NCBI GenBank assembly: GCA_016198705.1
Contig: JACQIA010000002.1
Coordinates: 1,521 to 65,520 of the forward strand
Reading direction: 5' to 3'
Origin: Candidatus Aenigmatarchaeota archaeon
GTDB taxonomy: Archaea; Aenigmatarchaeota; Aenigmatarchaeia; CG10238-14; SCSR01
Length of the DNA stretch: 64,000 nt
Shown in pieces: positions 1 to 59,726 of this stretch; position 1 is the stretch's first letter, and the number at the start of each line of letters is the position of its first letter. Both the position numbers and the translations under genes were made by a program. The notes under the pieces were generated by a model, which made no database searches, was not told the origin of the DNA, and saw nothing but the letters and a program-made list of their open reading frames with translations.

Positions 1-1108
1 CTGTCTTGCTCCTTATTGCATCGCCAAATTTCGACTTTATCATGTGAAAGACTGTTTCAGCATTTGACCTCTTGTGGTAGTGTTCTGTGAACTCGCCGTG
101 CTTATACATGAAATAATACCACATCTTATGCCAAGTCGAAGAGCCATTGGCTCTCGGTGTTGTATTCTTTTTGAACGGGATATACGGCATAGCCCCGATT
201 TCTTTTATAGCATCCAAGTTGTTCCTTGAACTGTAACCCATGTCCGCACTCAATTCCTTAATCTGAAAATGCTCTGATGTTTCTATCATCAAAGGCTGTA
301 GGAACTTTGTATCATGTTCGTGTGCTGTTGTTACCTGTAATGCCGTGACTATGTTCGTCTTAACGCCACTCATTACATGAGCCTTCAACCATTTTCTGAT
401 ATTCTTCTCTTTACCGTATTTGTAATCAAACCAACGGTCAAACCTTGATGTTGAAAACCCAGTAGAGTCTACTGTAAAGTCTTGTTCTACCGATTTCAAA
501 GGCAGACTGGATATTGTGATTAATTCCTTTATTACCTGTGTTAACTCTGGATTTTCCATGTAGTATGCGACACTTGAGTAATGCGGGACTTTTCGGATAT
601 ATCCAAATTCTTGTGCGATCTTCATGTCTGATGTGAATCTTCTTAGTGAGAATGTTGTAAATACTTTGAGAGCAGATGAAAATACCATATCTGATAGAAG
701 TAACTTTGGTCTACCGAAAACATACTGCGGTTGCTGTATGGTCTTGCACAAGTCATTCAGTAATTTCAGGAACAACTCCTTTTGTTGGGTTTGCGATTTG
801 TCGTAAGCTACCCAGTCTTGGGAATAAGTCACCTTTTTAGTAACTGTAATATTACCTTGTTCGTCAATTTGCTTCTTTACAATTATTTCCACTGCAAACT
901 GATGTTTGCACTTAATCCGTCTCTTTTCAAAATCGGGGCATGAGCAAGTAGGCATGTCTTTCTCTAATTTCACAGTATAAGAACCGTTGCCTGTTTGGGA
1001 CGGCACAAGCCACTTGTCGCCCAAATAAGTAAGCTTTGAAGATTTGACAATCTCTTTACCTCTTAATTTTCTATCTTCAAGCAGTTGGTTATAGTCCATT
1101 TCAATCAT
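1..1108 (-). CDS. DDE transposase, IS4/IS5 family, N-terminal SWIM zinc finger; 3' end (C-terminus) cut by the window
   Basis: Own translation of the minus strand gives MIEMDYNQLLEDRKLRGKEIVKSSKLTYLGDKWLVPSQTGNGSYTVKLEKDMPTCSCPDFEKRRIKCKHQFAV ... SADMGYSSRNNLDAIKEIGAMPYIPFKK ... HYHKRSNAETVFHMIKSKFGD, which carries the YREK motif. Confidence 0.7.
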   Translation of the reverse strand, partial: MIEMDYNQLLEDRKLRGKEIVKSSKLTYLGDKWLVPSQTGNGSYTVKLEKDMPTCSCPDFEKRRIKCKHQFAVEIIVKKQIDEQGNITVTKKVTYSQDWVAYDKSQTQQKELFLKLLNDLCKTIQQPQYVFGRPKLLLSDMVFSSALKVFTTFSLRRFTSDMKIAQEFGYIRKVPHYSSVAYYMENPELTQVIKELITISSLPLKSVEQDFTVDSTGFSTSRFDRWFDYKYGKEKNIRKWLKAHVMSGVKTNIVTALQVTTAHEHDTKFLQPLMIETSEHFQIKELSADMGYSSRNNLDAIKEIGAMPYIPFKKNTTPRANGSSTWHKMWYYFMYKHGEFTEHYHKRSNAETVFHMIKSKFGDAIRSKT

Positions 1109-1120
1109 CACTACCTATAC

Positions 1121-1140
1121 TATATACCTTTAGGTATATA
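1121..1140. promoter_or_regulatory. Perfect 8-bp inverted repeat (TATATACC-TTTA-GGTATATA) in the divergent region between the transposase and the Zn-ribbon ORF; TATA-box-like
   Basis: Read directly from the sequence; it lies 13 nt upstream of the transposase ATG. Confidence 0.3.
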
Positions 1141-1229
1141 TACTTAACAGTAGTTCACTTCCGATGGCATTAGGCTTATAAGCATCGTATACCATATTTA
1201 TATTACTCAAGTGATTGAGGTAAAGTATC

Positions 1230-1397
1230 ATGATAGAATGCCCTAAGTGCCACCATAAATGGGATAACCGCCTCGAATGCAAGAGGTGCGGTCACAAGTG
1301 GTATCAAAAAACATCTGAATTGCCAGAAGTATGTCCCAATCCAGAATGTAAAAGCCCATACTGGAACAAACCAAGGAAAAAGAAGGGGAAGGCATGA
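1230..1397 (+). CDS. Small zinc-ribbon protein (55 aa, CPKC...CKRCGH...CPNPEC)
   Basis: ATG at 1230 and TGA at 1395-1397, overlapping the methyltransferase ATG at 1394. Translation is MIECPKCHHKWDNRLECKRCGHKWYQKTSELPEVCPNPECKSPYWNKPRKKKGKA. It falls below the 60-aa cut-off of the ORF track. Confidence 0.4.
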   Translation: MIECPKCHHKWDNRLECKRCGHKWYQKTSELPEVCPNPECKSPYWNKPRKKKGKA

Positions 1398-2302
1398 AAG
1401 CCGAAGTGGGATTGCAAGGGTTTAAAACTACGAGAGAGATTATTCTAAATGATTACATGCAGATAAGACTAGACGGAAAAGTAAACGGCACAAGAATACC
1501 ACAGCCATTCTTAAAATGGGCTGGTGGCAAAAGGAATCTCATCAATGAAATTCTTGGCAAACTGCCTGAAAAATTCAACAATTATCACGAGCCTTTTATC
1601 GGCGGGGGAGCGGTTTTCTTTGCGGTTGGAAACAAGGCAAATCATTCTACAATTTCGGACAGCAATCTCGAGCTAATCATGACTTTCAAGGTAATACAGA
1701 AGAACCCAAAAGCACTCATCGAGAAACTGAAAATACACGCATCGAAGCACTCTGAAAAATATTTTAGTGAGATAAGGGGACAAGAACCTGCAGATCCAAT
1801 AGACATAGCCTCACGCATGATATACCTGAACAAGACCTGCTACAACGGGTTATATCGGACAAATAAGAATGGCAAATTCAATGTCCCTTTCGGGAAAAAC
1901 AACAGCCCCAACATTGTGCAAGAAGAAAATATTTTATCATGCCACGAGTTTCTGAAAGATACTAAAATATTATTCGGGGATTTTGAGACAATAAATCCGC
2001 AGAAGGGCGATTTTGTGTATTTAGATCCGCCCTACCACCCCACGGGCGAAATGTCCTTTACAAAATACACGAAGGAAAACTTCACGGAAAGAGACCAGTT
2101 GAGATTAAGGGACTTCATAGCAAGGCTGACAAAGAATGGCGTTTTTGTCATGCTGTCAAACTCTAATACAAAGTTCATAAATGATTTGTATGGCGACAAG
2201 AAGTTCAAGAAAGACATAGTGCTGTCGCCCAGATTCATAAACTGCAAACCGAACGAAAGAAACGAAGTGGAAGAACTTTTAATTACAAATTACCAATTGT
2301 AG
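1394..2302 (+). CDS. N6-adenine DNA methyltransferase, Dam/D12 class (alpha group)
   Basis: Motif I FLKWAGGKRNLI and motif IV DPPY (YLDPPYHPT) in Dam-like order; 302 aa. Confidence 0.85.
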   Translation: MKAEVGLQGFKTTREIILNDYMQIRLDGKVNGTRIPQPFLKWAGGKRNLINEILGKLPEKFNNYHEPFIGGGAVFFAVGNKANHSTISDSNLELIMTFKVIQKNPKALIEKLKIHASKHSEKYFSEIRGQEPADPIDIASRMIYLNKTCYNGLYRTNKNGKFNVPFGKNNSPNIVQEENILSCHEFLKDTKILFGDFETINPQKGDFVYLDPPYHPTGEMSFTKYTKENFTERDQLRLRDFIARLTKNGVFVMLSNSNTKFINDLYGDKKFKKDIVLSPRFINCKPNERNEVEELLITNYQL

Positions 2303-2305
2303 CTT

Positions 2306-2764
2306 ATGAAACAAGGGACATACGCAAACTATACAGGAGATAAACTTCAAAAATTTATTTTCAACAATCTTGTTGAGAAAGGATATACCTTAATAGACAG
2401 GAAGAAATTCGACTCTTCGAAATACCTTGAACAGCCTATATTTGCAACTGAGTATACCGTTGGGAAAAGCATATACGAGACTAAGATTGATTGTGATTTT
2501 ATAATATTTCACCCTAAAAAATTCCCGAATTGCCTGATTATAGAGTCCAAATGGCAAGAATCTACTGGCTCAGTTGACGAAAAGTTTCCTTATCTTGTTT
2601 ACAATATCAAGAAATGCTACCCATGTGCTACAATTGTTGTCTTGGACGGCGGGGGCTACAAAAAGGAAGCTGAGCAGTGGCTGAGAAAACAAGTTGGCGG
2701 TAAGCTCGTCAAGGTGCTAAACATGAGGGAATTTCAGAAGTGGTCTAACAGCGAAGAATTATGA
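2306..2764 (+). CDS. Predicted PD-(D/E)xK nuclease, candidate cognate restriction endonuclease of the Dam-like methyltransferase
   Basis: 152 aa with E...IDCDFIIF...LIIESKWQ fitting the (P)D...ExK catalytic pattern. It starts 4 nt after the methyltransferase stop, so the two are probably co-transcribed. Confidence 0.4.
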   Translation: MKQGTYANYTGDKLQKFIFNNLVEKGYTLIDRKKFDSSKYLEQPIFATEYTVGKSIYETKIDCDFIIFHPKKFPNCLIIESKWQESTGSVDEKFPYLVYNIKKCYPCATIVVLDGGGYKKEAEQWLRKQVGGKLVKVLNMREFQKWSNSEEL

Positions 2765-3544
2765 GTTCAACAAATCTTGTTTTAAAGCTTCTAAAAAGGC
2801 TTTTATATCAATCAGAAGTTTTTCTTGCAATGCCAAAAATTCACTTGAGTTCAGTCCTATAACACTACTTTTACCCGCATATTTCAAACAGCTCTGAGCA
2901 ACGAGTCTTTTTGTCTTTTCTGGATCATCTACCAAGTCTAGATCATGCACGGGAAATGTTCTTAGGTGTTTGATATGAAATATAATAAAATCATCTATGC
3001 TTTTAGATTCACCGTTTTCAATAATTGTATAGAACTTTTTTGGTATTCGAAGATGACGCTCTTCTGATGCACCTTCATAAAATATCTTATATAATGCCAC
3101 AATAAATTTTTGAAAGTGTTCTTGAGTTTTAACTGGTATACGAATTTGACTAAAACTTGCCAGTGAAGTATGTGTCACTCTAAAAATGACTCCAGTTTCC
3201 TTTGATTCGGAGAGATTATTACAATCGGAAATTAAAATTCCTAACTCATCAGATAACTTTCCAAATAATTGAGCTTTTCCATGATGAACAGAACCAATAA
3301 GCCTGTATTCAGACGATTCACTAAAAATGAATTTAGGTATTTTATCATTCTCAATTTCGTTGTTTATTTTCTGTAATAAAGCAGTCCTAACAAGGGGCAA
3401 ATTTTTTTCTAATATGCTTGAAACTTCTAATTCCTCGCTAACGCCAGTTGCTCGGATAATTTCCGATATTTCACTCTCTAAATCAATAGTTTTAGTATCG
3501 GGTAGGTTCCATATAGTAGTTACAATATCTTCATAAGATATCAT
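2759..3544 (-). CDS. Hypothetical protein (261 aa), downstream partner of the ParB-like gene with a 4-nt overlap
   Basis: Complete ORF overlapping the upstream gene by ATGA; no motif recognised. Confidence 0.4.
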   Translation of the reverse strand: MISYEDIVTTIWNLPDTKTIDLESEISEIIRATGVSEELEVSSILEKNLPLVRTALLQKINNEIENDKIPKFIFSESSEYRLIGSVHHGKAQLFGKLSDELGILISDCNNLSESKETGVIFRVTHTSLASFSQIRIPVKTQEHFQKFIVALYKIFYEGASEERHLRIPKKFYTIIENGESKSIDDFIIFHIKHLRTFPVHDLDLVDDPEKTKRLVAQSCLKYAGKSSVIGLNSSEFLALQEKLLIDIKAFLEALKQDLLNS

Positions 3545-4650
3545 TTTATTCCCAATGCTTTTAAATGAGCTTCTACAATTTTTTTCAAATCGTTAAGCAA
3601 ATCCACAAACTTCTCAGAACCATTCGATAGTTTTATTTTAACATCAGGTAGATTCTCTATCTGGGAATTTAATTCTTTTAATTTCCTTAGCCACTCCTCA
3701 AGTTCTTTCGGCTCTTCTTCCAAATTCCATATTTCATATTTAAGGCGGTTTATATGCATATCAACACTCGATTCAAACTTCTTGAAAAGACTTGGATAAT
3801 TAACCATGGCTTTTGCCACAAAATCTCGAACATCATTAGATCGTTCAATCCTTGGCGGATTACCTTCAACACTGACTATCCAAGATAGATATTTTCTAAG
3901 ATTCTCGATGTTTTTGAAATGTTTCTCCTTTTCATCCCATTCAAGCCATTGTTGTATAGGGGTGTTTATTGCTGTGAAAATGGCTTCTTGAAAGAAGCTG
4001 AAATCGTCTTCCTTCAGATATTCACCAAATTCTTCATCTTGAGTGCTTTGTTCATACGCATAATAAGAACGCATCAATCTTGCTGACTTTATAGAACCTA
4101 TACCAACTGCTTTTCCAGCGTCTTCTATTTTAATCTTCCTCTCTTTAACAAGTTTTATTAATAATTTTGCCTGTTGATACGGTTTCCAATTTTTAATGCC
4201 AGATATGTGCCTTATACCTTGAATTATCCAAGCTATATCAGGTTCCTTACCTTTGTAGACATAGACGGTAAATCGCAAAATGCTGTTCAGAACAGCATCA
4301 GATAGTTCTATCTCCCCACTCTCATGCTCTATCTTCAATTGTTTTATTGCCGTTATTCTTCTGTTACCTTCTACTACTACATATTTTTTTGAGTCTGCAA
4401 TACGTCTTACTACAATTTTATCTATTGGTAAAAAACCAACTCGTTTGATATTTTCTTTCAATTCTTCTATACCAAAATCGTGCATTTTTTCAAAACATGT
4501 TCTTTGTATACTTTCTTCGATTATTCTGCTATCCGATACAAGCTTTTCTTTTCCAGAGAATCTTGGATTGTTCGGATCTAAAAATACATCTTCTAAGTTT
4601 ACTTGTCTTTCTTCAAAATCGTTTAAATCAATTATTTCGTTACCATTCAT
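3541..4650 (-). CDS. ParB/sulfiredoxin-fold (ParB-like nuclease / DUF262-like) domain protein, 369 aa
   Basis: The N-terminal segment LPIDKIVVRRIADSKKYVVVEGNRRITAIKQL matches the ParB N-domain / DUF262 core (hydrophobic-x-DG-QQR/ERR-x-TA). The long C-terminal part is helical with no recognised domain. Confidence 0.55.
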   Translation of the reverse strand: MNGNEIIDLNDFEERQVNLEDVFLDPNNPRFSGKEKLVSDSRIIEESIQRTCFEKMHDFGIEELKENIKRVGFLPIDKIVVRRIADSKKYVVVEGNRRITAIKQLKIEHESGEIELSDAVLNSILRFTVYVYKGKEPDIAWIIQGIRHISGIKNWKPYQQAKLLIKLVKERKIKIEDAGKAVGIGSIKSARLMRSYYAYEQSTQDEEFGEYLKEDDFSFFQEAIFTAINTPIQQWLEWDEKEKHFKNIENLRKYLSWIVSVEGNPPRIERSNDVRDFVAKAMVNYPSLFKKFESSVDMHINRLKYEIWNLEEEPKELEEWLRKLKELNSQIENLPDVKIKLSNGSEKFVDLLNDLKKIVEAHLKALGIK

Positions 4651-5167: not shown

Positions 5168-6877
5168 TCAATTGCCTTCAAGCTTGGCTATTCTAGCTTT
5201 CAGCGCATCATTCTCAGCTTTCAAATCTTTGAGTGCCTGGAGCATGAGATAGGGAAGCTCCTCATTATGAATTTGCTTAATCCCATCCTTTTCTGTCACC
5301 AGTTCAGGAAGATATTGCTCTACCTGTTGGGCAATTAATCCGATCTGTGTTTCATTGCCCATGTGCATTTCAGGATATTCGTCTGAACGCCATTGGAAGT
5401 ATACTGGTTGTAATTGTGTTACTTTATCCAATACTGATGGTAATGGGGCAATATTTTTCTTGAGTTTTATATCTGAAGAACATGTGCCTGCTAGTATAGT
5501 TCCATCAGCATCTTTAACGCATCCTGTAGTTCCGGTGCCGACACGGATGTCGCCACTAACGTCTAGTTTATCTAGTGGCGCTGTTTTTCCGATGCCGACG
5601 TTGCCGGTGCTTGCAATTATTCCCAACAGTACATTTGCATTTGAATCTTGGAAAGAAAAATCTGATGCACTGCCAGCTGATTTGAAGTGAATTCCTCTAC
5701 TGGCTACAGCGGTGGTATATAAGCCTCTTTTGTTGAGAGGGCTGGTAGCACTACTATCATCGGTGGACATTGTGCCGCGTAACCCCTCGCTGGAGTGGAC
5801 ACCAATAGTGCCAAGCACACTTAACTTTTCGCTTGGAGATGCCGTCCCGATGCCGACGTTGCCCGACGTATCAATATCAATCCTGCTGAGACCATTGGTT
5901 CGTAAGCTAAGTGGGTGATTGGTTAAAGTACCTATGAGAGCATCCGTATCTCTCGATCTTAAAAATATAGTACTCCCCCCAGTCGTGCTCACTTTGATAG
6001 TTGGTTCTGTTGTTCCACCGCCACTGACTTCAAGCTTGCTACTTGGCGTCGTCGTCCCAATTCCGACGTTGCCTGATGGCGTTATAACCATCCGACTCTG
6101 TGCACCGCCAGTGCCTCCAGTTCTAAACTCAAGGTCCCCAACACCACTAGTTCCTGTTGGAGTGCCGCTTCCTATCGCGGCAGAAAAGCTTGTTGCAGTA
6201 TCACCAAAGAGAATTAGATTGTACGAACTAGATGGAGAAAGAAATTGAAGAGTTGGAACTGCGCTGTCTTCAATAAGAACATCTGTGCCTGAAGAGGAGC
6301 TTAACCCGGAAGCGCCACCAAACACGTGTAATTTTTTTGCCGGACTCGTAGTCCCGATGCCGACGCTGCCATCATCCTTGATGACCGCCAAATCACTTCC
6401 AGCGGAGCTTTGGAAATAAATGCCGTCTGGTCCTGCCGCAACAACACTTGGTACAAATAATATTGCTGGAGAGGAAATTATCTTCATAATCTGTCCTAGT
6501 ACAGTTATTATTGCTGTACTGCACATGCTGGATGTACACAATCTTAGAGTATGTTTGCCTTCTGGCAGGGATGATAGTGCTTGTATTGTTGCTGTTTGTC
6601 CTGGGGGAATTGGGAATGGGGAGATTAATAGATCAACAGGATTGCCAGCTTCAGTGGCTTTGATTTCTTTTATCGCATCTGTGCCGCTATTTATGACAGT
6701 AATGGTGTCTTTGAATGCATCAACCACTGAGAATGCTGTTGAAGTTTTGCTGGTAAAAACGCCGGAAATAAATGAATAACTAAATCCAACCAAACCAATT
6801 GTAATTATTAGTATCAATAAGGTGCCTATTATCGAGGATATTGCTTTGGCCTCTTTTTTGATTTTCATACCCATCAC
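5168..6877 (-). CDS. Surface fibre protein: class III (type IV pilin-like) signal peptide + GNVGIGTTxPxxKL tail-fibre-like repeats + C-terminal peptidase S74 intramolecular chaperone domain
   Basis: The N-terminus MKIKKEAKAISSIIGTLLILIITIGLVGFSY is a pilin-type signal. There are at least four repeats of the form GNVGIGTT(S/T/A)PxxKLxV. The C-terminus SSDIKLKKNIAPL...QIGLIAQQVEQYLPELV...LPYLMLQALKDLKAENDALKARIAKLE matches the endosialidase/tail-spike auto-cleaving chaperone domain (SDxRxKxNI ... GLIAQEVEEVLPELV). Confidence 0.8.
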   Translation of the reverse strand: MMGMKIKKEAKAISSIIGTLLILIITIGLVGFSYSFISGVFTSKTSTAFSVVDAFKDTITVINSGTDAIKEIKATEAGNPVDLLISPFPIPPGQTATIQALSSLPEGKHTLRLCTSSMCSTAIITVLGQIMKIISSPAILFVPSVVAAGPDGIYFQSSAGSDLAVIKDDGSVGIGTTSPAKKLHVFGGASGLSSSSGTDVLIEDSAVPTLQFLSPSSSYNLILFGDTATSFSAAIGSGTPTGTSGVGDLEFRTGGTGGAQSRMVITPSGNVGIGTTTPSSKLEVSGGGTTEPTIKVSTTGGSTIFLRSRDTDALIGTLTNHPLSLRTNGLSRIDIDTSGNVGIGTASPSEKLSVLGTIGVHSSEGLRGTMSTDDSSATSPLNKRGLYTTAVASRGIHFKSAGSASDFSFQDSNANVLLGIIASTGNVGIGKTAPLDKLDVSGDIRVGTGTTGCVKDADGTILAGTCSSDIKLKKNIAPLPSVLDKVTQLQPVYFQWRSDEYPEMHMGNETQIGLIAQQVEQYLPELVTEKDGIKQIHNEELPYLMLQALKDLKAENDALKARIAKLEGN

Positions 6878-7223
6878 TTTTTCAAAAGATCCCGGAAAAA
6901 ATCATCCCAAGTATATCTCCTTTTTGCATTCTTTGAGCCGAGAATCAGCTTTTCTTTCCTGAGAACTTCAAAAGTGTCGTCTCTTACGCTTATTATAGCT
7001 CGTGACATTTTATCATTTCATGGAATTTTATTATTTAATTAATTTAATGCATATCATGATTTTTATTCATTTATATGATTTCATGTATATAATGGATTTG
7101 ATAAAAAAGCATAAATACAGTTCACTAGATATTATGCCCCATTTGACTGGTTGCCAAACTGCAGAATGGATGACCGAATTTGGGCTTTTTTAATAGTTTA
7201 CCTTCCAATTAACATTAGATTCT

Positions 7224-10133: not shown

Positions 10134-11369
10134 ATGAAATTTCCTGTGGAAGTTCTTGAACAGGCAAAAAATCGAGAAAAACTGCTCGAAATCCTGATAA
10201 ATGGACTGTGTTTAAACTGTTTGGGGCGCCAATTCGGGATGCTGGGGCATGGCTTGACTAATGCCGAGCGGGGGAAAATTTTAAGGGAATTTGCAAATAA
10301 ATTAAATAAATCCGAATTTAAAGAGCCAGACGTTTGCAATATGTGCAACAATTTCTTTAAAAACCGCATAGGCAAAATTGCCAATTCTATTGCCAAAAAA
10401 CTAGGCGATATAGAATTCAACACTTTTTTAATAGGGTCTATAATCTCAAGAGAAGTCGCTAGAAGGCAAGAGGAATTATGGGAGCGAATAGGAATCGAAG
10501 ATGTGGAGCCGATTAAATCTGAAATAAATAGGGAACTTGGGAAAATATTAGAAAAATTAACTGGAAAAAAGTTTGATTTGAAAAATCCCGATATAACGAT
10601 AGTAGTTGATTTGGATACTGATAACATAAGGCTGCAGATAAGGAATTTGTTTGTCTACGGCAAATATCAAAAATTAGTTAGGGGTATACCGCAAACCAAA
10701 TGGATATGCAGCAGGTGCAGTGGCAAAGGATGCACTTTCTGCAAGGGTGAAGGCAAGCTGTATCCTACCTCTGTCCAAGAGATTGTAGAGAAGCCTTTGA
10801 TAAAGGCGACTAACAGCAAAAGTTCTGCTTTCCATGGTGCCGGTAGGGCAGACATAGATGCTAGGGAGTTAGACTACAGGCCGTTTGTGCTAGAATTGAT
10901 AAGGCCAACCATAAGGAAGCTGGATTTAAAAAAGATGGAAAAGCAAATAAACAAATCTAAAAAGGCCAAAGTTACAAGTTTGAAATTAATCAAAGAAGGC
11001 AAATATATTATACGAAAATTGAAGACTGACAGGATTGACAAGACATATCTCGCAGAGGTTGAGTTTAAGCAAGACATAGACAAGAAGAAGTTGAAGTTGG
11101 TTAAAGGAATCATCAAAGAGCCTATCATCCAAAAAACTCCCCTCCGTGTTGTCCACAGAAGGGCTGATAAGTTCAGAAAGCGTTTAGTCAAAGCAATTTC
11201 CTATAAACAATTGGCCAATCGTAGACTGCAATTGAAGATAAGGGCTGAAGCTGGGCTGTACATCAAAGAATTGATAAGCGGGGACGATGGCAGAACTAAG
11301 CCCAACATTTCGGAGATACTTGGCAATAATGTTAAAAAGATAAAGTTAGATGTTATAAAGATTGGATGA
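10134..11369 (+). CDS. pus10: tRNA pseudouridine synthase Pus10 (psi54/55)
   Basis: N-terminal Zn-binding CLNC / CNMCNNFF; catalytic region HGAGRADIDARELDYRPFVLELI resembles the Pus10 GREDVDVR-GRPF core; 411 aa. Confidence 0.6.
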   Translation: MKFPVEVLEQAKNREKLLEILINGLCLNCLGRQFGMLGHGLTNAERGKILREFANKLNKSEFKEPDVCNMCNNFFKNRIGKIANSIAKKLGDIEFNTFLIGSIISREVARRQEELWERIGIEDVEPIKSEINRELGKILEKLTGKKFDLKNPDITIVVDLDTDNIRLQIRNLFVYGKYQKLVRGIPQTKWICSRCSGKGCTFCKGEGKLYPTSVQEIVEKPLIKATNSKSSAFHGAGRADIDARELDYRPFVLELIRPTIRKLDLKKMEKQINKSKKAKVTSLKLIKEGKYIIRKLKTDRIDKTYLAEVEFKQDIDKKKLKLVKGIIKEPIIQKTPLRVVHRRADKFRKRLVKAISYKQLANRRLQLKIRAEAGLYIKELISGDDGRTKPNISEILGNNVKKIKLDVIKIG

Positions 11370-11454
11370 TGTATAGATTACTTACACAGCTTTATTGAAT
11401 TTCTGATGATTTAAAGATTTAAATAGTTAATAACCGTAATTTTTGGTGATATAA

Positions 11455-12207
11455 ATGGTAATGTACTTTCAAACCGCCTTCGAAAGACGACCTCAACCTC
11501 CTGATTGGAATGTTATCACAAGAGATCAGCGTCAACAAGAACTTCTAAGTGTTGGGCAAAGAGTTGCTCAAGAGTTAAATGTAAAAGAAGTTAGATATCA
11601 AGATTATCATAAGTCATACGTGGGTATCACCTTTTATATTAGTCCTGTAAAAGGTCAGTGTAATTATGCTTCCGACGACGATGGGCATTATTATACGATA
11701 CCCGTTGATGATTTCGATCCTTTAAACTTAGACATAATGAAAGCAAAGTTAAAATGGAATCCTCCTTACGAGGTTGATGTAGGCGGCGTAAGTCATAACC
11801 TTGAAACAGGAGTAATGCATCTACGCGTTAGTGTTGCTGTTGGTGAAGAGGAAACATTGGTTTATCGAGGTAGAGGTACGTATGAAGAATTAAAAGAGCA
11901 GGGCTTGGTAAGAAAAGTAGGAGAATCTTATGCACCACTTCCTAATATTGTGTTATCCAAGCATAGAGAAAGAACTACAAAGACTAGAGGATTCTTAGGA
12001 TTTGGCCAGCGAGAAAGACAAGAAACAATTTACGAAGCTAAAGAGAGAACAATTGAACCTGTAAAAGCACATATTGGTGTTTCAGCTGATGGAAGTGTAT
12101 CTGTAGATGGAAGATTTTTACAAAATGAAAATGTGCAAAGAGCATTAGATATTATTGTCGAAGAGTTATTTGGGCTGGATATAAAAACTAAAACCCCTGT
12201 TTCATGA
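11455..12207 (+). CDS. Hypothetical protein, 250 aa, compositionally atypical (Arg/Gln/Glu-rich, Lys-poor)
   Basis: Complete ORF with no recognised motif; it sits between pus10 and rpl21e, and its protein composition differs from its neighbours. Confidence 0.4.
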   Translation: MVMYFQTAFERRPQPPDWNVITRDQRQQELLSVGQRVAQELNVKEVRYQDYHKSYVGITFYISPVKGQCNYASDDDGHYYTIPVDDFDPLNLDIMKAKLKWNPPYEVDVGGVSHNLETGVMHLRVSVAVGEEETLVYRGRGTYEELKEQGLVRKVGESYAPLPNIVLSKHRERTTKTRGFLGFGQRERQETIYEAKERTIEPVKAHIGVSADGSVSVDGRFLQNENVQRALDIIVEELFGLDIKTKTPVS

Positions 12208-12331
12208 AATCCAGTATAAGCTTCTTGTTCCCTTCCGGTATTTTCACCGATTCCCTCAATCTTTTTAAGTCTGTCCGCAGATGTAATTTATAGTAGTTGG
12301 GTCTTTCATAGAATACATACAAAGTGAGTTT

Positions 12332-12616
12332 ATGACTAATAAATCCAGAGGCTTTAGGCAATCAACCAGGAAAAAATTGCGCCAAAAACCCTCATTTAGG
12401 CCTCCGATTACGAAATTTCTACGAGAATTCAATGAAGGGCAAAATGTGGTTATCGAACTAGAGCCTTCTAGTCAGAAAGGAATGCCATTTCCAAGATTCA
12501 AGGGCAAAATAGGGAAGGTTATTGGTAAAAACGGCAGGAGCTATATAGTTGAGCTGTTTGACGGCAGGAAGATGAAAAAGATTACCTCAAGACCAGAACA
12601 CCTGAAAGCCATCTGA
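12332..12616 (+). CDS. rpl21e: Ribosomal protein L21e
   Basis: SSQKGMPFPRFKGKIGKVIG compared with L21e QKGMPHKxYHGKTGRV; 94 aa. Confidence 0.8.
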   Translation: MTNKSRGFRQSTRKKLRQKPSFRPPITKFLREFNEGQNVVIELEPSSQKGMPFPRFKGKIGKVIGKNGRSYIVELFDGRKMKKITSRPEHLKAI

Positions 12617-12650
12617 TTTATATGCTATAACTGTAAATAAGAAATGTGAT

Positions 12651-12977
12651 ATGATGGAGATAGTAAGCGAGCAAATCGTAACCGATTCAGAGGCCAAAGA
12701 ATTGCTAGAAAAGAATGCAGATGGGGAGTTGAAGTATGAGCAGAAGAATGCAATCGAGATTTTAAGGAAGTTCATTGCTGTGCCAACGGATAAAATCAAG
12801 GCCTTGATGGAGGACTTGAATAAAATAGAAAAATTAAGGGACAGGCACATAATTTCTATTGTTAATTTTTTACCTGAAGATAAAGAAGACTTGAGGGTAA
12901 TTTTGCATAAGGAATACGCAACATTTACAGAAGACGAACTAAATCTAATCCTTGAAACTGTGAAAAAAACTGTTTAA
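12651..12977 (+). CDS. rpoF: RNA polymerase subunit Rpo4/F (probable)
   Basis: 108-aa acidic helical protein lying between rpl21e and DUF655, the conserved archaeal L21e-RpoF-DUF655 cluster. The call rests on context and size. Confidence 0.5.
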   Translation: MMEIVSEQIVTDSEAKELLEKNADGELKYEQKNAIEILRKFIAVPTDKIKALMEDLNKIEKLRDRHIISIVNFLPEDKEDLRVILHKEYATFTEDELNLILETVKKTV

Positions 12978-12982
12978 AGCAT

Positions 12983-13546
12983 TTGGTGAAACAAATGATA
13001 GCAAAAGACGATTACGTGATAGTTTTAGATTTTTTGCAGCATGGCAAACCATCTGATAGGCGTGCAGAGCCAGTGGCTCAATGCGTTGGCGATAAGTTTT
13101 TCAACTTGCTGGAGGTTGCTATAAAAGATGATGTTGCTGTCAAGACAAAAGACAGGCTTTACATCGGCGAAAGCAAGCGGGATCAGGTGAAATACATACG
13201 TGGTAGGATTAATTACAGTGAATTGACGTCGTATGCCAAAGACAGCATACAGGAGGTTGTGGTTGAGTTGGTTCAAAATGATGAGAAAAGATTTGTGGAA
13301 TTTTTCAATAAATCTAGTTCCCTAACTACACGAATGCATTCATTAGAACTGTTGCCTGGGATAGGAAAATCCCATCTATGGGATATCTTAAATGAACGAA
13401 AGAAGAAGCCATTCGAAACTTTCAAGGATGTCCAAGATAGGGTGTCTATGCTGCCTGACCCTAAGAAGATGATAATAAAGAGAATTTTCAATGAATTTGA
13501 AGGAAAGGACAGGCATAGGTTGTTTGTTGCTAGCACTATGTTATAA
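12983..13546 (+). CDS. DUF655-family RNA-binding protein (HhH)
   Basis: The N-terminus DDYVIVLDFLQHGKP compares with DUF655 YAYVLDYLPxG; it is the third gene of the conserved trio. Confidence 0.6.
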   Translation: MVKQMIAKDDYVIVLDFLQHGKPSDRRAEPVAQCVGDKFFNLLEVAIKDDVAVKTKDRLYIGESKRDQVKYIRGRINYSELTSYAKDSIQEVVVELVQNDEKRFVEFFNKSSSLTTRMHSLELLPGIGKSHLWDILNERKKKPFETFKDVQDRVSMLPDPKKMIIKRIFNEFEGKDRHRLFVASTML

Positions 13547-30733: not shown

Positions 30734-30801
30734 AATGAATCTTAATTTCCCGCCAATATAATCCTTTGCATTATATAATATCTGGTGTGTAAATTTAATT
30801 T

Positions 30802-31194: not shown

Positions 31195-31198
31195 ATGG

Positions 31199-44807: not shown

Positions 44808-44911
44808 GCCTTCGTAGCTCAGCTTGGATAGAGCAGCTCACATGATTGGCTGAACCTTCTATCTGTCTGGGAGCAAGGAGAAGGTCGAGGGTTCAAATCC
44901 CTCCGAGGGCA
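44808..44911 (+). tRNA. tRNA, 104 nt, intron-containing; identity unresolved
   Basis: Acceptor GCCTTCG/CGAGGGC (one G-U); discriminator A; T-arm GAGGG-TTCAAAT-CCCTC; variable loop AGGTC; D-arm GCTC-AGCTTGGATA-GAGC. About 29 extra nt lie between position 26 and the variable loop, including a 6-bp helix CCTTCT/AGAAGG. No single canonical 37/38 intron gives a clean anticodon arm. Confidence 0.65.
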
Positions 44912-45890: not shown

Positions 45891-47540
45891 TTAATTTATC
45901 CTCAATACAGCTGTATTGCATGTGCTAGTTGTGCACATCTTTAAAGTATGAGTGCCTTTTGATAATTGATTGTATATCTTCATTGTTGCTATTTCGCCTG
46001 GGTTTATTTGGGAGCCTGTGTCGTAATTGGCTTTAATTTCTTGTGCTGTCAGCGCCCGATTGTAAATCCTCACTTCATCTAGTTGTCCATTAAATTTGTT
46101 GAAGCCCGCAGTAACCGACCCCATAGCAAGAGGAACCCCTACATCGGACTGACCAACTCCTGTTGGAGTGAGTACCTCATCGAGGGGGAGCACTACTCCG
46201 TTCTTATAGAGTATGGGATCATTACCAACCGAATCTTGGTTATAAACTACGGTATAGAATGCTGGCGTACCAACCTCAACCGGTTGATTAACTGTTATCC
46301 ATTGACCGGTTCCTGTAGTGAAGAGTTTGACAAGGGCTAGATCCCTAGCAGTACCCGCGAAAGCAGATGAAAAATAGATTCTCCATCCTACACCATCATC
46401 CTTTCCAAGGATATCCATGTTATTGGCTGGCGGTGCAGTAGCAGATGCCCAAAATTCTACTGTTCCTCCTCCAACGAAAATATTTTGGATACTAGAATGA
46501 TCCGTGACAGAAACTATATCATTCACTCCGTCAAAAGCTTTAGCAGCCCCGTATTTCCCCTTTACAATATTATGCCTATCATTAGCGTCATTATTAAAAT
46601 TATACCACGCTACACTTCTGCTAACAGGATATGTATAATTCATATCTTCTTGGATTTCTGATTGTGACAATGCTCTGTTGTAAATGCGCACTTCGTCGAT
46701 GGTGCCGTTAAAATAGCTGCCTGCGTTTCCACCGTCATCCCTTTTTCCTATGGTAGCTGTTGTGGCTATTGTATTGATGGCTACGCTGAAAGTTCCGCTC
46801 GCGGCTGAAACGCCATTCAGATAATAGTTCCAAGCGCTTCCCGAAAGGGTGAATGCGACGTGATTCCAACTGCCGTTAGTTGGAAGCTGTGAGCCAGAAA
46901 TAATTATGTTGTTTGCGCCATTTATTCCGTCAGTAAAGACATAAATATTTCCCCCCACAGTAGCGAATTGAAATATGAAGCTTTGAGCAGCGGCGGCAAC
47001 GTTATTGAGGGCGAACACTGTTCCACCGGGATTCAATTTGTTGGGCATAATCCACGCCTCGATAGTCCTGCTGGAAGCGCCTATCGGAAGGTCAGTTATG
47101 CTGCTTACGTTGACATAATCATCCACACCGTCAAACTGCAATGCATTCCCATACTGCCCGCTAGCAAATCCAGCCCCATTTATCGTCCCGTCATTAAAAG
47201 TCTCCCCATTGAATGTTCCTGTGTTTCCTTTACCAGAAGAATCTGTAGCAGTTATCCTATCCAATTCATCCATCTTCCAATACCCAACCGAAGAATTATC
47301 CTGCTTAGACATACGATAAACAGCATCACTCCCGTCTATCTTCACACTTCTAAAAGCAGTTATCGGCGCAGTCCCGTCATTGCTTATGGTAACAGTATCG
47401 CTGAACGCATCAACCACATAAAACACTTCAGCAGTCTTTGTAGTAAACACACCAGAAATATAAGTATAGCTGAATCCAAACAAGCCAATTGTGATTATCA
47501 GCACTAGTAAAGTAGCTATAATTGAGGAAATGCCTTTCAT
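45891..47540 (-). CDS. Pilin-signal surface protein with two LamG/ConA-like lectin domains (putative adhesin)
   Basis: N-terminus MKGISSIIATLLVLIITIGLFGFSY is a class III signal. The two LamG signatures are GNALQFDGVDDYVNV...IEAWI...NHVAFT...GTIDEVRIYNRALSQSEI and later GQLDEVRIYNRALTAQEI. Confidence 0.7.
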   Translation of the reverse strand: MKGISSIIATLLVLIITIGLFGFSYTYISGVFTTKTAEVFYVVDAFSDTVTISNDGTAPITAFRSVKIDGSDAVYRMSKQDNSSVGYWKMDELDRITATDSSGKGNTGTFNGETFNDGTINGAGFASGQYGNALQFDGVDDYVNVSSITDLPIGASSRTIEAWIMPNKLNPGGTVFALNNVAAAAQSFIFQFATVGGNIYVFTDGINGANNIIISGSQLPTNGSWNHVAFTLSGSAWNYYLNGVSAASGTFSVAINTIATTATIGKRDDGGNAGSYFNGTIDEVRIYNRALSQSEIQEDMNYTYPVSRSVAWYNFNNDANDRHNIVKGKYGAAKAFDGVNDIVSVTDHSSIQNIFVGGGTVEFWASATAPPANNMDILGKDDGVGWRIYFSSAFAGTARDLALVKLFTTGTGQWITVNQPVEVGTPAFYTVVYNQDSVGNDPILYKNGVVLPLDEVLTPTGVGQSDVGVPLAMGSVTAGFNKFNGQLDEVRIYNRALTAQEIKANYDTGSQINPGEIATMKIYNQLSKGTHTLKMCTTSTCNTAVLRIN

Positions 47541-53227: not shown

Positions 53228-54436
53228 GTGGACAAATTAAAAGAAATCAATCCAAAAATGGTACCAGAATGTAACATAGGTACTTTGGGACATGTAAGCC
53301 ATGGTAAAACAAGCTTAGTTGCGGCACTTACTGGTAAAATAACATTAACCCATTCAGAAGAATTGAAGCGTGGAATAACCATTCGCCTAGGTTATGCTGA
53401 TGCAACCATCTACCGATGTATAAAATGCAATAGGTATTCTACTACTAACAAATGCCCTTATTGTTTTTCTGATTCTGAAATAATTAGGACGATAAGTTTC
53501 GTAGATGCACCAGGGCATGAGACATTGATGGCAACAGTGCTGACAGGAGCAAGTTTGATGGATGGTGTATTATTCGTAATTGCAGCCAACGAAAAATGTC
53601 CCCAACTGCAGACAAAAGAGCATTTAGCTGTTTTAGAAATAGCAGAAATCAAAAATGCTATAATTATACAAAATAAGATTGATACGGTTTCAGAAGAAAG
53701 GGCTTTGAAAAGCTACGAAGAAATAAAAGATTTTGTAAGAGGAAGTATATTGGAAGAAGCGCCAATTATTCCTGTATCCGCCCAATACAAAACAAACATA
53801 GATGTGGTTTTGGAAGCAATGGAAAAATTTATTCCCACTCCCAATAGAGGAGAATCAAACGAGCCTAAAATGCTTGTTGCTAGAAGTTTTGACATAAACA
53901 AGCCAGGGGCAAAACCTGAAAAATTGGTCGGTGGAATACTTGGAGGGGCAATATTATCTAGTAAGTTTTCTGTAGGCGAAAAAGTAGAAATAAGACCGGG
54001 TGTGAAGATCGGGAATAAGTATCAACCGTTATTTGCAAAGATAGTTGGTTTGAAGAAGGCTGGAATAAATCTTGATGTTGCTGGCGCAGGTGGTCTTTTG
54101 GGCTTGATGACGACATTAGACCCGTCTTTAACAAAATCTGATTCTTTAGTTGGCAATGTCGTGGGTTTGCCAAATAAGATGCCAGAATCAAAAGAAACCA
54201 TCTCGCTTAAAATAACCTTTCTAAATAGGGCTGATGCGTCGAATGTTAAGGTAAATGAAATAATTTTAATTAATGTGGGGACTGCAAGGTCGGTTGGAAC
54301 TGTATCCAGTGTTAAGAAAGAAACTATAGAAATGAAGTTGAAAATACCGGTTTGCGTGGAAGAAAAAGAAAAGGTAGCAATATCCAGGCAGATAGATGGA
54401 AGATGGAGACTAGTAGGTTATGCTATTACAGCTTAA
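53228..54436 (+). CDS. eif2g: Translation initiation factor aIF-2 gamma
   Basis: GHVSHGKTSLVAALTG G1 motif and a Zn-knuckle (CIKCNRYSTTNKCPYC); 402 aa. Confidence 0.85.
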   Translation: MDKLKEINPKMVPECNIGTLGHVSHGKTSLVAALTGKITLTHSEELKRGITIRLGYADATIYRCIKCNRYSTTNKCPYCFSDSEIIRTISFVDAPGHETLMATVLTGASLMDGVLFVIAANEKCPQLQTKEHLAVLEIAEIKNAIIIQNKIDTVSEERALKSYEEIKDFVRGSILEEAPIIPVSAQYKTNIDVVLEAMEKFIPTPNRGESNEPKMLVARSFDINKPGAKPEKLVGGILGGAILSSKFSVGEKVEIRPGVKIGNKYQPLFAKIVGLKKAGINLDVAGAGGLLGLMTTLDPSLTKSDSLVGNVVGLPNKMPESKETISLKITFLNRADASNVKVNEIILINVGTARSVGTVSSVKKETIEMKLKIPVCVEEKEKVAISRQIDGRWRLVGYAITA

Positions 54437-54891
54437 GCAGCAACACCAGCAGTAGAACAAAATGCACTTCCAGTCACTGGTGAAGCCCCAGTTGCAGATG
54501 CTCTTAATCTATAGGTTCCAATTGTAGCAGCGTTTGGTCTATCTAAACCAACTGTAGTATCGGTATCAGCATCGTCAGGACAAGCTCCTGAAGTCCCAGG
54601 AGCTATGCTAGTTATGGAACAACTTCCTGCAGCAACACCAGCAGAATCTGTGGCACTTACTGTGACAGTACCACTTGGAGATGTACCTTCATTCCTAACA
54701 GTAATATCTATATCATCTCCAGCACACGTTGCATCAAGAATATCTAAAACCACACCAGTTCTCGAACTTACAACACCGCTAAGATAAGTATAAGCAAAAC
54801 CAGCCAAAGCTATAGTTATCACAAGCATCAAAAGAGTCGCTATTACGGTTGATATACCTTTTTTCATATTATCACTTTTTAAGTACTGCAA
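54433..54891 (-). CDS. Secreted pilin-like protein (archaeal class III signal, Gly/Ala/Thr/Ser-rich)
   Basis: KKGISTVIATLLMLVITIALAGFAYTY; the mature part is GATS-rich with Cys pairs. Confidence 0.6.
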   Translation of the reverse strand: MQYLKSDNMKKGISTVIATLLMLVITIALAGFAYTYLSGVVSSRTGVVLDILDATCAGDDIDITVRNEGTSPSGTVTVSATDSAGVAAGSCSITSIAPGTSGACPDDADTDTTVGLDRPNAATIGTYRLRASATGASPVTGSAFCSTAGVAA

Positions 54892-54894
54892 TCT

Positions 54895-55299
54895 TTATAC
54901 GCCTGCAGTCGAGCAAAATACTGTTCCACTAGCTGGCGCTGCTCCAGCTGCACTTACGCTTAATGAGTTAGTTCCTGTCCCTCCAATGGCTCGATTGGCC
55001 GTGCATTCACCAGAAAGTCCGGGATTTACAGATGCAATTGTACAAGAACCGGCAGCAGTAGTTCCATCAGGCTGTGTAGCCGATACAGTTATATCTCCAC
55101 TAGGTGCAGTTCCTTCATTCCTGACACCAACAGTTATTGAATCACCAACACAGCTTGATTTAATAAGACCCAAAACTACACCAGTTCTGGCAGTTGTAGT
55201 TCCTGTAATGTATGTATAAGCAAAACCTACCAATGCTATAGTTATCACAAGCATCAAAAGAGTCGCTATTACTGTAGAAACACCCTTTTTCATAAGCAT
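54895..55299 (-). CDS. Secreted pilin-like protein, tandem paralogue of the previous gene
   Basis: MKKGVSTVIATLLMLVITIALVGFAYTY; the signal peptide is near-identical to the neighbouring gene's. Confidence 0.6.
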   Translation of the reverse strand: MLMKKGVSTVIATLLMLVITIALVGFAYTYITGTTTARTGVVLGLIKSSCVGDSITVGVRNEGTAPSGDITVSATQPDGTTAAGSCTIASVNPGLSGECTANRAIGGTGTNSLSVSAAGAAPASGTVFCSTAGV

Positions 55300-59683: not shown

Positions 59684-59726
59684 GCCAATCGCTTAGTTTA
59701 TTTATTAAAAATACAAATGAATAATT

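Follow-up and report, generated by a model that had tools for sequence, protein, structure and literature searches.

Within the 64-kb stretch of DNA that was analyzed (referred to below as the window), a single gene on the minus strand encodes a protein in which a pilin-like module is followed by a tail-fibre-like shaft and a Peptidase S74 domain. Residues are numbered on a 566-aa protein unless stated otherwise. The features of the gene are as follows.

5168 to 6877, minus strand: whole open reading frame, 569 codons from GTG 6877, stop codon at 5168-5170
6842 to 6868, minus strand: class III (prepilin-type) leader MKIKKEAKA, found by motif scan
6500 to 6841, minus strand: pilin carrier module, aa 10-123
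6371 to 6499, minus strand: neck or linker between the pilin module and fibre repeat 1, aa 124-166, from alignment A1
5477 to 6370, minus strand: Gly/Ser/Thr-rich fibre shaft with four repeats, aa 167-464, from homology and composition
6323 to 6370, minus strand: repeat 1, GSVGIGTTSPAKKLHV
6026 to 6073, minus strand: repeat 2, GNVGIGTTTPSSKLEV
5816 to 5863, minus strand: repeat 3, GNVGIGTASPSEKLSV
5558 to 5605, minus strand: repeat 4, GNVGIGKTAPLDKLDV
5477 to 5554, minus strand: conserved tip GDIRVGTGTTGCVKDADGTILAGTCS with two cysteines (C450/C463), up to 83% identical to bacterial proteins
5171 to 5476, minus strand: Peptidase S74 chaperone, aa 465-566, 11.7 kDa, from Pfam, catalytic dyad, and fold

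The ATG at 6868, the third in-frame methionine, yields the 566-aa protein and is the start of the NCBI entry; it is likely the real start of the tail-fibre reading frame. The 566-aa product is MBI4009576.1, which bears the NCBI name "tail fiber domain-containing protein" and is 100% identical to P0001. Its source is a Candidatus Aenigmarchaeota (DPANN) MAG. The length of 569 aa given in the original prediction is correct when counted from the GTG, but the MKIKKEAK start quoted with it begins at ATG 6868 and belongs to the 566-aa version, so that the two statements are strictly incompatible; the discrepancy is trivial. The attribution to an AT-rich archaeon was sound. The GC content of the window is ~38%, and archaeal proteasome alpha, exosome Rrp41, aIF2-gamma, and prefoldin alpha were identified. 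Over the fibre, GC reaches 0.48 versus 0.38. Foreign DNA was considered as the cause of this rise and rejected, because amino-acid composition accounts for it.

Class III signals consist of a charged leader ending in [KR][GA] and, directly behind it, a hydrophobic helix 20 or more residues long (FlaFind-type rule). In the protein studied here (the target), a short charged leader ending in K-A stands directly before the hydrophobic helix (MKIKKEAKA|ISSIIGTLLILIITIGLVGFSYSFI), and more than 20 hydrophobic residues come after the junction K-A|I-S-S-I-I-G. The motif scan agreed in this respect with the class III signal that had been proposed for the N terminus. Cleavage by prepilin peptidase is predicted after Ala9, before ISSIIG. 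The K[GA]|[IV]S motif was also present in the relatives P0002, P0005, P0006, and P0052. As read from the sequence, K-A|I-S-S, an archaeal leader, stands where bacterial pilins have G|F..E.

The carrier module has the fold of a long N-terminal helix joined to an Ig-like beta-sandwich ("lollipop"). In the model, the helix spans residues 4-41 and is followed by an 8-strand beta-sandwich with a conserved LCTSSMC pair (C111/C116). The target scored 16 with PF07790 Pilin_N (cut-off 25.2), 13.2 with TIGR02537 (cut-off 20), and 34 with the UpsA profile (cut-off 130; E = 2.3e-8). A precomputed PF07790 Pilin_N match exists for P0005, a relative with 66% N-domain identity to the target. The neck behind the carrier is kept in every pilin-fibre relative, even in the distant GW2011_AR5 protein, as evident from A1 and from the P0192 and P0267 sequences.

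At least four tail-fibre-like repeats had been claimed for the shaft. There are exactly four, of the form G[NS]VGIG[TK]TxPxxKLxV, at aa 170, 269, 339, and 425 (569-aa numbering). PHROGs tail-fibre families aligned to the shaft in up to four stretches (phrog_9942, E = 7.7e-28; phrog_18345, E = 1.5e-25), and matches of this strength imply that the repeats are not due to chance. A phmmer search of the PDB with the shaft retrieved Bd2133 (8ond, E = 3.5e-10) and further 8oml, 8ojn, 8ol4, and 8on4, with the alignments centred on ...GNVGIGT.P..KL.V, and Foldseek matched the model of the target to Bd2133, Bd2439, and Bd3182. The closest solved relatives of the shaft are thus cellular prey-recognition fibres of Bdellovibrio. 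These belong to the mosaic adhesive trimers (MATs), which comprise an S74 subgroup, e.g. Bd3182, and non-S74 members, e.g. Bd2133 (Caulton et al. 2024, PMC10769870). The tip GDIRVGTGTTGCVKDADGTILAGTCS would form the mature C terminus of the target after S74 cleavage.

The C-terminal S74 domain of the original prediction was recovered well above the Pfam threshold. Peptidase_S74 (PF13884, IPR030392) matched over the full profile (1-58) at aa 468-528 (569-aa numbering), scoring 58 bits (gathering cut-off 22; E = 1.2e-15). The sequence SSDIKLK at aa 467 provides S468-D469-x-x-x-K473 (569-aa numbering), which corresponds to S465 and K470 of the 566-aa protein, the predicted nucleophile and base, respectively. 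A lack of conservation around the Ser-Lys dyad had been named as one refuting outcome; S, D, and K of the SDxxxK motif were instead invariant in an alignment of 28 homologues, and none of the refuting outcomes named in the original prediction was observed. In PDB alignments the motif matched the SD..K of 8jov, 6f45, and MyRF. The S74 model had a block-mean pLDDT of 93-98 over the last ~100 residues and ended in a C-terminal helix of coiled-coil character. Foldseek matched it to the MyRF ICA (7dc3, 7.5e-6), the K1F endosialidase chaperone (3gw6, 8e-4), and 3gud (0.05).

Relatives of the carrier module were collected by an exhaustive profile search, which replaced a word-indexed search with the N-domain that gave one fragment only. 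The family comprises 578 cluster representatives with many passengers, attached C-terminally or inserted, among them LamG, DUF2341 (in the sister protein P0052), and giant modules. The occurrence of one carrier with many passengers is the signature of a presentation module. Many stand-alone pilins of ~105-170 aa belong to the family as well. The combination of fibre and S74 on the carrier is rare (2 of the best 150 of the 578 relatives). P0002, encoded on an independent contig of another sample, has the same order of pilin, fibre, and S74, and P0005, P0006, and P0267 have the same anchor and neck with other small tips instead of S74. Scans of GTDB species genomes with A1 and with the single N-domain returned nothing or a spurious Pedobacter match. 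A metagenome scan yielded P0005 and P0006 again and, in addition, three split-type relatives of one sample only.

The surroundings of the gene in the window contain the following features.

2 to 1114, minus strand: DDE_Tnp_1+SWIM transposase, cut by the end of the window
1394 to 2302: D12/type II methyltransferase
2306 to 2764: PD-(D/E)XK nuclease
30035 to 39025: type IV filament assembly locus
35200 to 36726: T2SSE/FlaI-like ATPase
36723 to 37604 and 37601 to 38581: two T2SSF platform genes
38615 to 39025: further pilin-like gene of the assembly locus
45891 to 47540, minus strand: LamG paralogue on the same carrier module, with two Laminin_G_3 domains
54433 to 55299, minus strand: two tandem small pilins of 143 and 131-134 aa

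The transposase, methyltransferase, and nuclease make up the R-M/IS island that had been described as adjoining the gene, and all three were identified. In the ORF-poor first 1.4 kb, no rRNA or other RNA was found; the transposase reading frame lies there. The flank opposite the island holds prefoldin-FtsY-SRP54. Both an assembly ATPase (T2SSE) and platform proteins (the two T2SSF genes) are present in the window. Also encoded in their locus are a KaiC-like ATPase, a MinD-like protein, and several small class III proteins of the KGQ type, a layout that fits the archaeal TFF "system 1" (bioRxiv 10.64898/2026.04.22.720090). None of the window's ORFs that were read was recognisable as a prepilin peptidase (peptidase A24). 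The LamG paralogue, in which the pilin beta-sandwich accommodates two inserted lectin-like domains, shares 26 of 32 residues of the mature N-terminal helix with the target and is a second modular pilin of the target's set. The tandem small pilins share 17-18 of the 32 residues with the target, and one small pilin in the window passes TIGR02537 (27.3 versus 20). The tandem pair are candidates for the major subunits of a filament bearing the target.

We interpret the target as a modular archaeal pilin-like surface protein, whose carrier presents a homotrimeric stalk of the MAT type that is folded by S74 and then freed from it; we assign this reading a probability of roughly 0.72. For the mechanism, the target itself contributes sequence features only, and each step is taken over from the families named. 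The precursor would enter the membrane by its class III signal and hydrophobic helix, and prepilin peptidase would trim off MKIKKEAKA. Outside the cell and without ATP, three S74 domains would associate and template the folding of the fibre chains from the C terminus. Ser465, activated by Lys470, would cut the chain before itself. This cleavage would free the 11.7-kDa chaperone and leave a chain of ~46 kDa with the Cys-bracketed tip ...GCVKDADGTILAGTCS. The fibre would be held at the cell surface by three pilin modules and would bind a ligand presented by a surface or by another cell, either a partner or a host. The ligand-binding step is suggested by the parallel with prey recognition by MATs and with adhesion by bacterial modular pilins, and by this analogy a cell-attachment fibre is a credible role for the tail-fibre pilin. 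Against the reading stand the sub-threshold Pilin_N and TIGR02537 scores, the failure to recognise an A24 peptidase in the window, the position of the assembly locus beside KGQ-type class III proteins rather than target-like pilins, and the lack of a solved precedent known to us for an obligate homotrimer on three pilin modules. So, too, does the strong conservation of the tip across bacteria (up to 83% identity), which one would not expect if the tip bound a host-specific receptor.

Bd3182 cleaves itself at the serine of SDxxxK, its S782A mutant does not, and MAT fibres are surface-exposed (PMC10769870). The target has in common with the MATs the GxVGIGT..P...L repeat and a C-terminal S74 domain with SDxxxK. 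In both families a constant N-terminal anchor is combined with S74 or non-S74 ends, the proteins are cellular rather than virion proteins, and contact with another cell is proposed. MATs carry a Sec signal and a private beta-rich N-domain of ~130 aa without PDB homologue (PMC10769870), whereas a class III signal and a pilin are found in their place here. Thus, the target would work like a MAT but is not a strict member. It is also archaeal (DPANN) and, at 566 aa, much shorter, and few copies were seen here compared with 21 in one Bdellovibrio genome.

The modular pilins of bacteria provide the other comparison. Examples are PilB (pilin plus vWA) and PilC (pilin plus lectin) of S. sanguinis (Raynaud et al. 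2021, PMC8179133). Such proteins present adhesive modules, probably at the pilus tip, and pilin-S74 (IPR012902-IPR030392) is among the 15 commonest bacterial modular-pilin architectures (PMC8179133). Here, too, a small pilin bears a grafted module that is not specific to pilus biology, and both passengers seen in the window, S74 and PF13385 Laminin_G_3, are frequent in bacterial architectures (PMC8179133). The scaffold differs, being an archaeal helix plus Ig-like sandwich (Pilin_N/archaellin-like) rather than the bacterial N-methyl-Phe type, and the passenger of the LamG paralogue is inserted inside the pilin domain, not appended. Signal and fold are shared with archaeal pilins and other class III proteins (Aap, Ups, and Sso/Pyrobaculum pili; FlaF/FlaG; the bindosome), and the co-occurrence of ATPase and platform genes is a further likeness to the archaeal pilins. 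DUF2341, found on the carrier of P0052, is the domain of the DUF2341 PilY-like adhesins (PMC4858521).

The target is an archaeal combination of two designs already published in bacteria, pilin-S74 and MAT fibres. Its novelty is therefore limited to the archaeal version; an archaeal pilin joined to a tail-fibre/S74 module was not found described in the literature searched. The description of the protein as unusual accordingly holds for archaea, given its rarity among the best relatives, but not for bacteria, in which pilin-S74 proteins have already been catalogued (PMC8179133).

How the fibre is held allows a second answer. The same chemistry might never take place in a pilus, the class III helix serving as a membrane anchor from which the fibre projects through the S-layer, as paralleled by the sugar-binding proteins of the Sulfolobus bindosome and by FlaF/FlaG. 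We regard this as possible but doubtful. Three transmembrane helices would easily hold a homotrimer, whereas a filament tip demands special geometry. The distance of the gene to the assembly locus is ~23-32 kb, and that to the matching small pilins 47 kb. In addition, class III signals are established on archaeal surface proteins that do not form pili (PMC4858521). On the other hand, the identities of the mature helix to the small pilins and to the LamG paralogue form a pattern typical of co-assembling minor and major pilins, the carrier family is rich in stand-alone pilins, and the bacterial precedents for modular pilins are pilus-borne (PMC8179133). We slightly favour a fibre at the end of a type IV filament over simple membrane anchoring. 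The filament would be made of the two small pilins (54.4-55.3 kb), and three consecutive subunits could cap its end.

A more far-reaching proposal is that DPANN archaea mount Bdellovibrio-type trimeric fibres on filaments for host recognition, with S74 trimerisation producing a three-pilin cap that seeds or ends the filament. We consider it unlikely. If true, the cap and its fibre would constitute a novel type of pilus-tip complex, by which an episymbiotic archaeon would primarily recognise its host. Tips would be traded between these archaea and bacteria in the way that phages trade receptor-binding modules.

The chaperone fibres of phages (K1F, 3GW6; GA-1 neck appendage, 3GUD; T5 L-shaped fibre; S16 gp37, 6F45) have the S74 fold and the Ser-Lys dyad in common with the target, together with the homology of a repeat-bearing shaft and the logic of trimer-dependent folding followed by self-cleavage. 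S74 is classic in phage fibres and spikes, the PHROGs tail-fibre matches are strong, and the gene adjoins a mobile and defence island (IS transposase, R-M system), all of which would suit a structural tail fibre, whether of an archaeal virus, of a provirus, or of an extracellular contractile injection system. This explanation is nevertheless very improbable. A class III pilin signal and a pilin fold, which here take the place of a virion-attachment domain, would be senseless on a virion protein. None of the ORFs read across the window was recognisable as a capsid, terminase, portal, sheath, or baseplate gene, the other flank holds the prefoldin-FtsY-SRP54 genes, and the GW2011_AR5 homologue adjoins L21e, Rpb4, and DUF655. 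The best identities of phage proteins to the target were 24-30%, and those of viral contigs 25%. The claim of a virus-derived fibre is therefore tenable only in a remote sense. Bacterial chromosomal proteins reach 70-83% identity in the tip and S74 module, and the closest structures are those of cellular MATs.

These bacterial proteins carry Sec signals (e.g. Blastocatellia for the tip) and match the tip and S74 module, whereas the S74 domain of the target is 35% identical to that of its nearest archaeal homologue. On account of this contrast, and with a MAG as source, the possibility was weighed that an archaeal pilin gene had been joined to bacterial fibre DNA in assembly or by accident, giving a chimera or a decaying pseudogene; it was found scarcely credible. 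The frame is intact across 1.7 kb, the S74 catalytic residues are intact, and GC3 of all four parts of the gene is 0.31-0.40, within the genome range of 0.34 ± 0.08. The closest bacterial gene has 63% nucleotide identity and uses the same codon at 32% of the identical residues, which argues against a recent splice, and synonymous sites are saturated between the target and its bacterial tip/S74 relatives. The order of modules is, moreover, repeated on independent contigs, with S74 in P0002 and without it in P0005, P0006, and P0267. A recent transfer from bacteria was rejected on the same nucleotide identity, codon sharing, and host-like GC3.

Hardly any weight attaches to the view that S74 is a working extracellular peptidase shown by the pilus rather than a single-turnover folding chaperone: Raynaud et al. 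place IPR012902-IPR030392 under "peptidase activity" (PMC8179133), but the characterised S74 domains (K1F, T5, MyRF, Bd3182) act once, in cis, and then leave, and S74 of the target follows the fibre at the extreme C terminus as in those proteins. MyRF, whose ICA (7DC3) matched the S74 model best in structure, is a membrane-anchored protein with trimerisation-dependent self-cleavage; it differs in that cleavage frees a transcription factor into the cytoplasm, and it has neither fibre nor pilin. The bacterial pilin-S74 proteins are uncharacterised and have been read as peptidases. Their architecture is more plausibly that of a fibre with its chaperone than that of an enzyme.

To our knowledge, no member of the Aenigmarchaeota has been cultivated, and little is understood of the means by which DPANN archaea locate hosts and attach to them. 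The target and its relatives are concrete candidate adhesins, comprising the S74 and non-S74 fibre proteins and the LamG, DUF2341, and giant passengers on the same carrier. The grafting of modules onto a pilin, known in bacteria, also operates on an unrelated-looking archaeal scaffold, the insertion form included. The protein poses the structural question of how an obligate trimer would be borne by the subunit of a helical filament. With it, the device of MAT/tail fibre plus S74 reaches an archaeal surface protein, beyond phages, predatory bacteria, and a eukaryotic transcription factor.

The target gene encodes a modular type IV pilin as Raynaud et al. use the term, and lies at the following position.

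5168..6877 (-): target open reading frame, 569 codons from GTG

NCBI starts the protein at an ATG, the third Met in frame, at position 6868, giving 566 aa (MBI4009576.1, on a 65.6-kb contig). The source phylum is placed in the DPANN kingdom Nanobdellati. A 44-codon ORF, MSRAIISVRDDTFEVLRKEKLILGSKNAKRRYTWDDFFRDLLKK, is found just upstream (6874..7008, -); its TGA stop overlaps the GTG/ATG starts of the target (GTGATG), which suggests translational coupling. Its sequence looks ribbon-helix-helix-like, no Pfam or NCBIfam match was obtained, and no counterpart was seen upstream of the genes for the relatives P0002 and P0006.

The original prediction of a class III-type leader was borne out by the sequence, in which MKIKKEAKA is followed by ISSIIGTLLILIITIGLVGFSYSFI. 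Curated profiles detected this N-terminus weakly and below their cut-offs (Pilin_N, E = 0.023; TIGR02537, E = 0.047; UpsA, E = 2.3e-8), and therefore other tests were run. In an exhaustive search of 1.84 billion cluster representatives, a profile built on the N-terminal ~170 residues of four proteins, the target and three relatives, retrieved a carrier family of 578 proteins at E <= 1e-3 (164 at E <= 1e-10), and a class III motif was present inside the first 60 residues in 117 of the best 150 of these 578. One relative, P0005, has a precomputed PF07790 match. An AlphaFold2 model of target residues 1-135, built with 40 family members, had a mean pLDDT of 91.4, with a single helix (4-41) leading into a sandwich of eight strands; the membrane-anchored proteins FlaF and FlaG were among its best structural matches. 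The family profile, the PF07790 match of P0005, and the model together indicate that the N-terminus is an archaeal pilin-type module rather than an ordinary Sec signal.

The middle of the protein is Gly/Ser/Thr-rich and matched PHROGs tail-fibre families with E = 7.7e-28 and 1.5e-25. At least four tail-fibre-like repeats had been claimed; four of the form G[NS]VGIG[TK]TxPxxKLxV were located at aa 170, 269, 339, and 425. When the full target was compared with PDB sequences, the sole matches were five fibre proteins of Bdellovibrio bacteriovorus, and the alignment with Bd2133 (8ond; E = 3.5e-10) fell exactly on the repeat.

The C-terminal S74 domain was likewise confirmed, with a Peptidase_S74 score of 58 bits versus a Pfam gathering score of 22. 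Its motif is S468-D469-I-K-L-K473 (569-aa numbering). Across 28 aligned homologues, Ser, Asp, and Lys do not vary, and they align with their equivalents in a phage tail fibre (8jov), S16 gp37 (6f45), and MyRF (7dc3). When the last 177 residues were modelled, block-mean pLDDT was 93-98 over the final ~100, S74 part included. Structural matches of this model were the ICA domain of MyRF (E = 7.5e-6), the chaperones of K1F endosialidase (8e-4) and GA-1, and Bdellovibrio fibres. Cleavage would free an 11.7-kDa fragment and leave a ~46-kDa chain ending in GDIRVGTGTTGCVKDADGTILAGTCS. The segment preceding the cleavage site (5477..5554, -), GDIRVGTGTTGCVKDADGTxIAGTC with two bracketing Cys, is nearly invariant (~80% identity) in dozens of bacterial S74 fibre proteins; so conserved a mature tip is unexpected in a specificity determinant. 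No N-x-S/T sequons were found in the mature part of the target.

The whole protein had more than 3,000 fibre matches, and among the best 120 of them a class III N-terminus was present in only five. The others begin with Sec signals of bacterial appearance, and those few for which a source is named are assigned to Blastocatellia, Acidobacteria, Paceibacterota, Bdellovibrionaceae, and similar groups. Viewed from the carrier side, two of the best 150 of the 578 relatives possess S74, namely the target and P0002, which is from a different sample and shows the same pilin-fibre-S74 fusion. Four more of these 150 (P0005, P0006, P0192, and the fragment P0254) have fibre repeats without S74. The cluster of P0192 includes a complete 638-aa protein from "archaeon GW2011_AR5" (KHO48223.1), consisting of pilin, neck, a fibre with seven repeats, and a small tip other than S74. 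Because the neck is conserved even in relatives with a diverged pilin module, the pilin-fibre junction is old.

The modules of the target differ in their closest matches.

Carrier module: best match to archaeal relatives, 59-74% identity
Tip: best match to bacterial proteins, up to 83% identity
S74: best match to the bacterial protein P0007, 70% identity
S74 versus that of P0002, the nearest archaeal homologue: 35% identity

By these identities (70-83% to bacterial proteins versus 35% to the S74 of P0002), the end modules differ between the two archaeal S74 proteins, the same 'tip swapping' as in mosaic adhesive trimers (MATs). The target and P0007 genes share 63% nucleotide identity and use the same codon at only 32% of conserved residues, which argues that module exchange was not recent. 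Window GC is ~38%, and the GC bump over the fibre is an effect of amino-acid composition.

The carrier family has many further passengers, with DUF2341 in P0052, a hydrolase-like region together with LamG in P0134, and giant proteins of 1,000-1,700 aa. The passenger is inserted within the pilin sandwich in 81 of 131 parseable members, this split form being the commonest architecture. The window itself encodes a paralogue of this kind, together with small pilins and a complete-looking type IV filament locus.

45891..47540 (-): modular-pilin paralogue sharing the carrier, with a pair of Laminin_G_3 (lectin-like) domains inside the pilin beta-sandwich
54433..55299 (-): two tandem small pilins, mature N-termini 17-18/32 identical to the target
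59228..60182 (+): second tandem pair of small pilins, of another sequence type, 6-8/32 identical to the target helix
30035..39025: type IV filament locus with T2SSE/FlaI-like ATPase, two T2SSF platform genes, KaiC-like ATPase, class III small proteins, CBS-domain protein, and MinD-like ATPase

In the paralogue, the insert lies between residues ~67 and ~512, aa 2-67 and 512-548 match the target, and the mature N-terminus is identical to it at 26/32 positions. Five class III ORFs besides the target were counted in the window. Of the two tandem pairs, only that at 54433..55299 resembles the target N-terminal helix; GC3 of the pairs is unusually low (0.15-0.22). Three of the class III small proteins of the filament locus have KGQ-type leaders (MKGQ/KKAQ|S..E), the others being divergent. 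In layout the locus resembles archaeal TFF 'system 1', recently described and present in methanogens and DPANN (bioRxiv 10.64898/2026.04.22.720090). Neither an A24 prepilin peptidase nor virus structural genes were recognised among the ORFs read in the 64-kb window, the filament locus included. The sole Rfam match in the 64 kb was a tRNA (44808..44911, +), which probably contains an intron given its 104-nt span.

The neighbouring R-M/IS island was also confirmed.

2..1114 (-): IS transposase, DDE_Tnp_1 plus SWIM, running off the window end
1224..1394: small zinc-ribbon ORF, in the mobile/defence island 2..4650
After the transposase, in 2..4650: type II D12 methyltransferase and PD-(D/E)XK nuclease (PDDEXK_11)
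2759..3544: partner of a convergent pair with 3541..4650, no matches
3541..4650: ParB_N-like protein (PADLOC PDC-M38A, 1.5e-45 / PD-Lambda-5_A)

Fibre genes of relatives likewise lie in variable regions: that of P0002 has as neighbours a second fibre gene and a gene for a PD-(D/E)XK protein, and that of P0006 lies amid toxin-antitoxin genes and adjoins another fibre. The GW2011_AR5 gene (L012 10001..11917) is flanked by DUF655 and L21e/Rpb4, with Pus10 near. Judged by eye from the sequences, these housekeeping genes seem to sit at 10134..13546 in the window, at a distance of 3-7 kb from the target, a hint of an ancient position with loose synteny. Just upstream of the GW2011_AR5 gene, a 2223-aa protein is encoded. 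The fibre upstream of P0002 (L001 7656..9956; 766 aa) has the same GIGT repeats, begins with an N-terminus of Sec-like or transmembrane type, is very rich in N-x-S/T sequons, and ends in the small C-terminal tip of P0005; thus, tandem fibre genes with different anchors are kept in these archaea. Upstream of P0006, a partial fibre gene with a coiled-coil end (L002 2..1954) was found, as was a free-standing 156-aa ORF (L002 2385..2855) like the C-terminal half of S74 (NIGLIAEDFYPVLE...coiled coil) without the Ser-Lys start, perhaps a relic or perhaps a chaperone in its own right.

A virion or eCIS fibre is practically ruled out by the pilin module, by identities to phage proteins of <=30%, and by the context, a segment of archaeal chromosome encoding proteasome alpha, Rrp41, aIF2-gamma, and prefoldin alpha. 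An assembly chimera or pseudogene is contradicted by the same module order on independent contigs, by GC3 inside the host range for every part of the target, and by intact catalytic residues. Raynaud et al. interpreted the bacterial pilin-S74 architecture as a peptidase (PMC8179133); such a reading, with a true peptidase acting in trans, is at odds with all that is known of S74.

The analysis shows the order of the modules, an intact dyad, and the pilin fold, along with assembly genes and matching small pilins. From the named families we infer that the modular pilin would undergo class III processing after Ala9, that a homotrimeric shaft would fold outside the cell, independently of ATP and with the S74 trimer as template, and that single-turnover cleavage would follow before Ser465 (566-aa numbering). 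The fibre would then be displayed on three pilin modules and bind a partner cell or a surface. A position at the filament end, capped by the three modules, is slightly favoured over one in the membrane by the helix identity shared with the small pilins and by bacterial precedent, PilB being a modular pilin modelled at the pilus tip (PMC8179133). With membrane-anchored FlaF and FlaG among the best structural matches, this preference is at most a shade better than even.

MAT fibres comprise 21 surface proteins, 13 with an S74 end plus SDxxxK and eight with other tips, all on a constant N-terminal anchor and with a proposed role in prey recognition; Bd3182 self-cleaves at the motif Ser, and its S782A mutant does not (Caulton et al. 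2024; PMC10769870). By its predicted function the target is a MAT-type fibre, but it lacks the combination of Sec signal and private N-domain, one of the features that define MATs, and is therefore not classed as one. Pilin-S74 (IPR012902-IPR030392) and pilin-PF13385 are among the 15 commonest bacterial modular-pilin architectures (PMC8179133). The literature searched, archaeal T4P surveys and DPANN cell-biology papers among it, yielded no account of an archaeal pilin fused to a tail-fibre/S74 module. The target thus represents an archaeal, DPANN form of already described bacterial pilin-S74 and MAT-type designs. It is a candidate host-attachment device and poses a structural puzzle, a trimer borne by a filament subunit.
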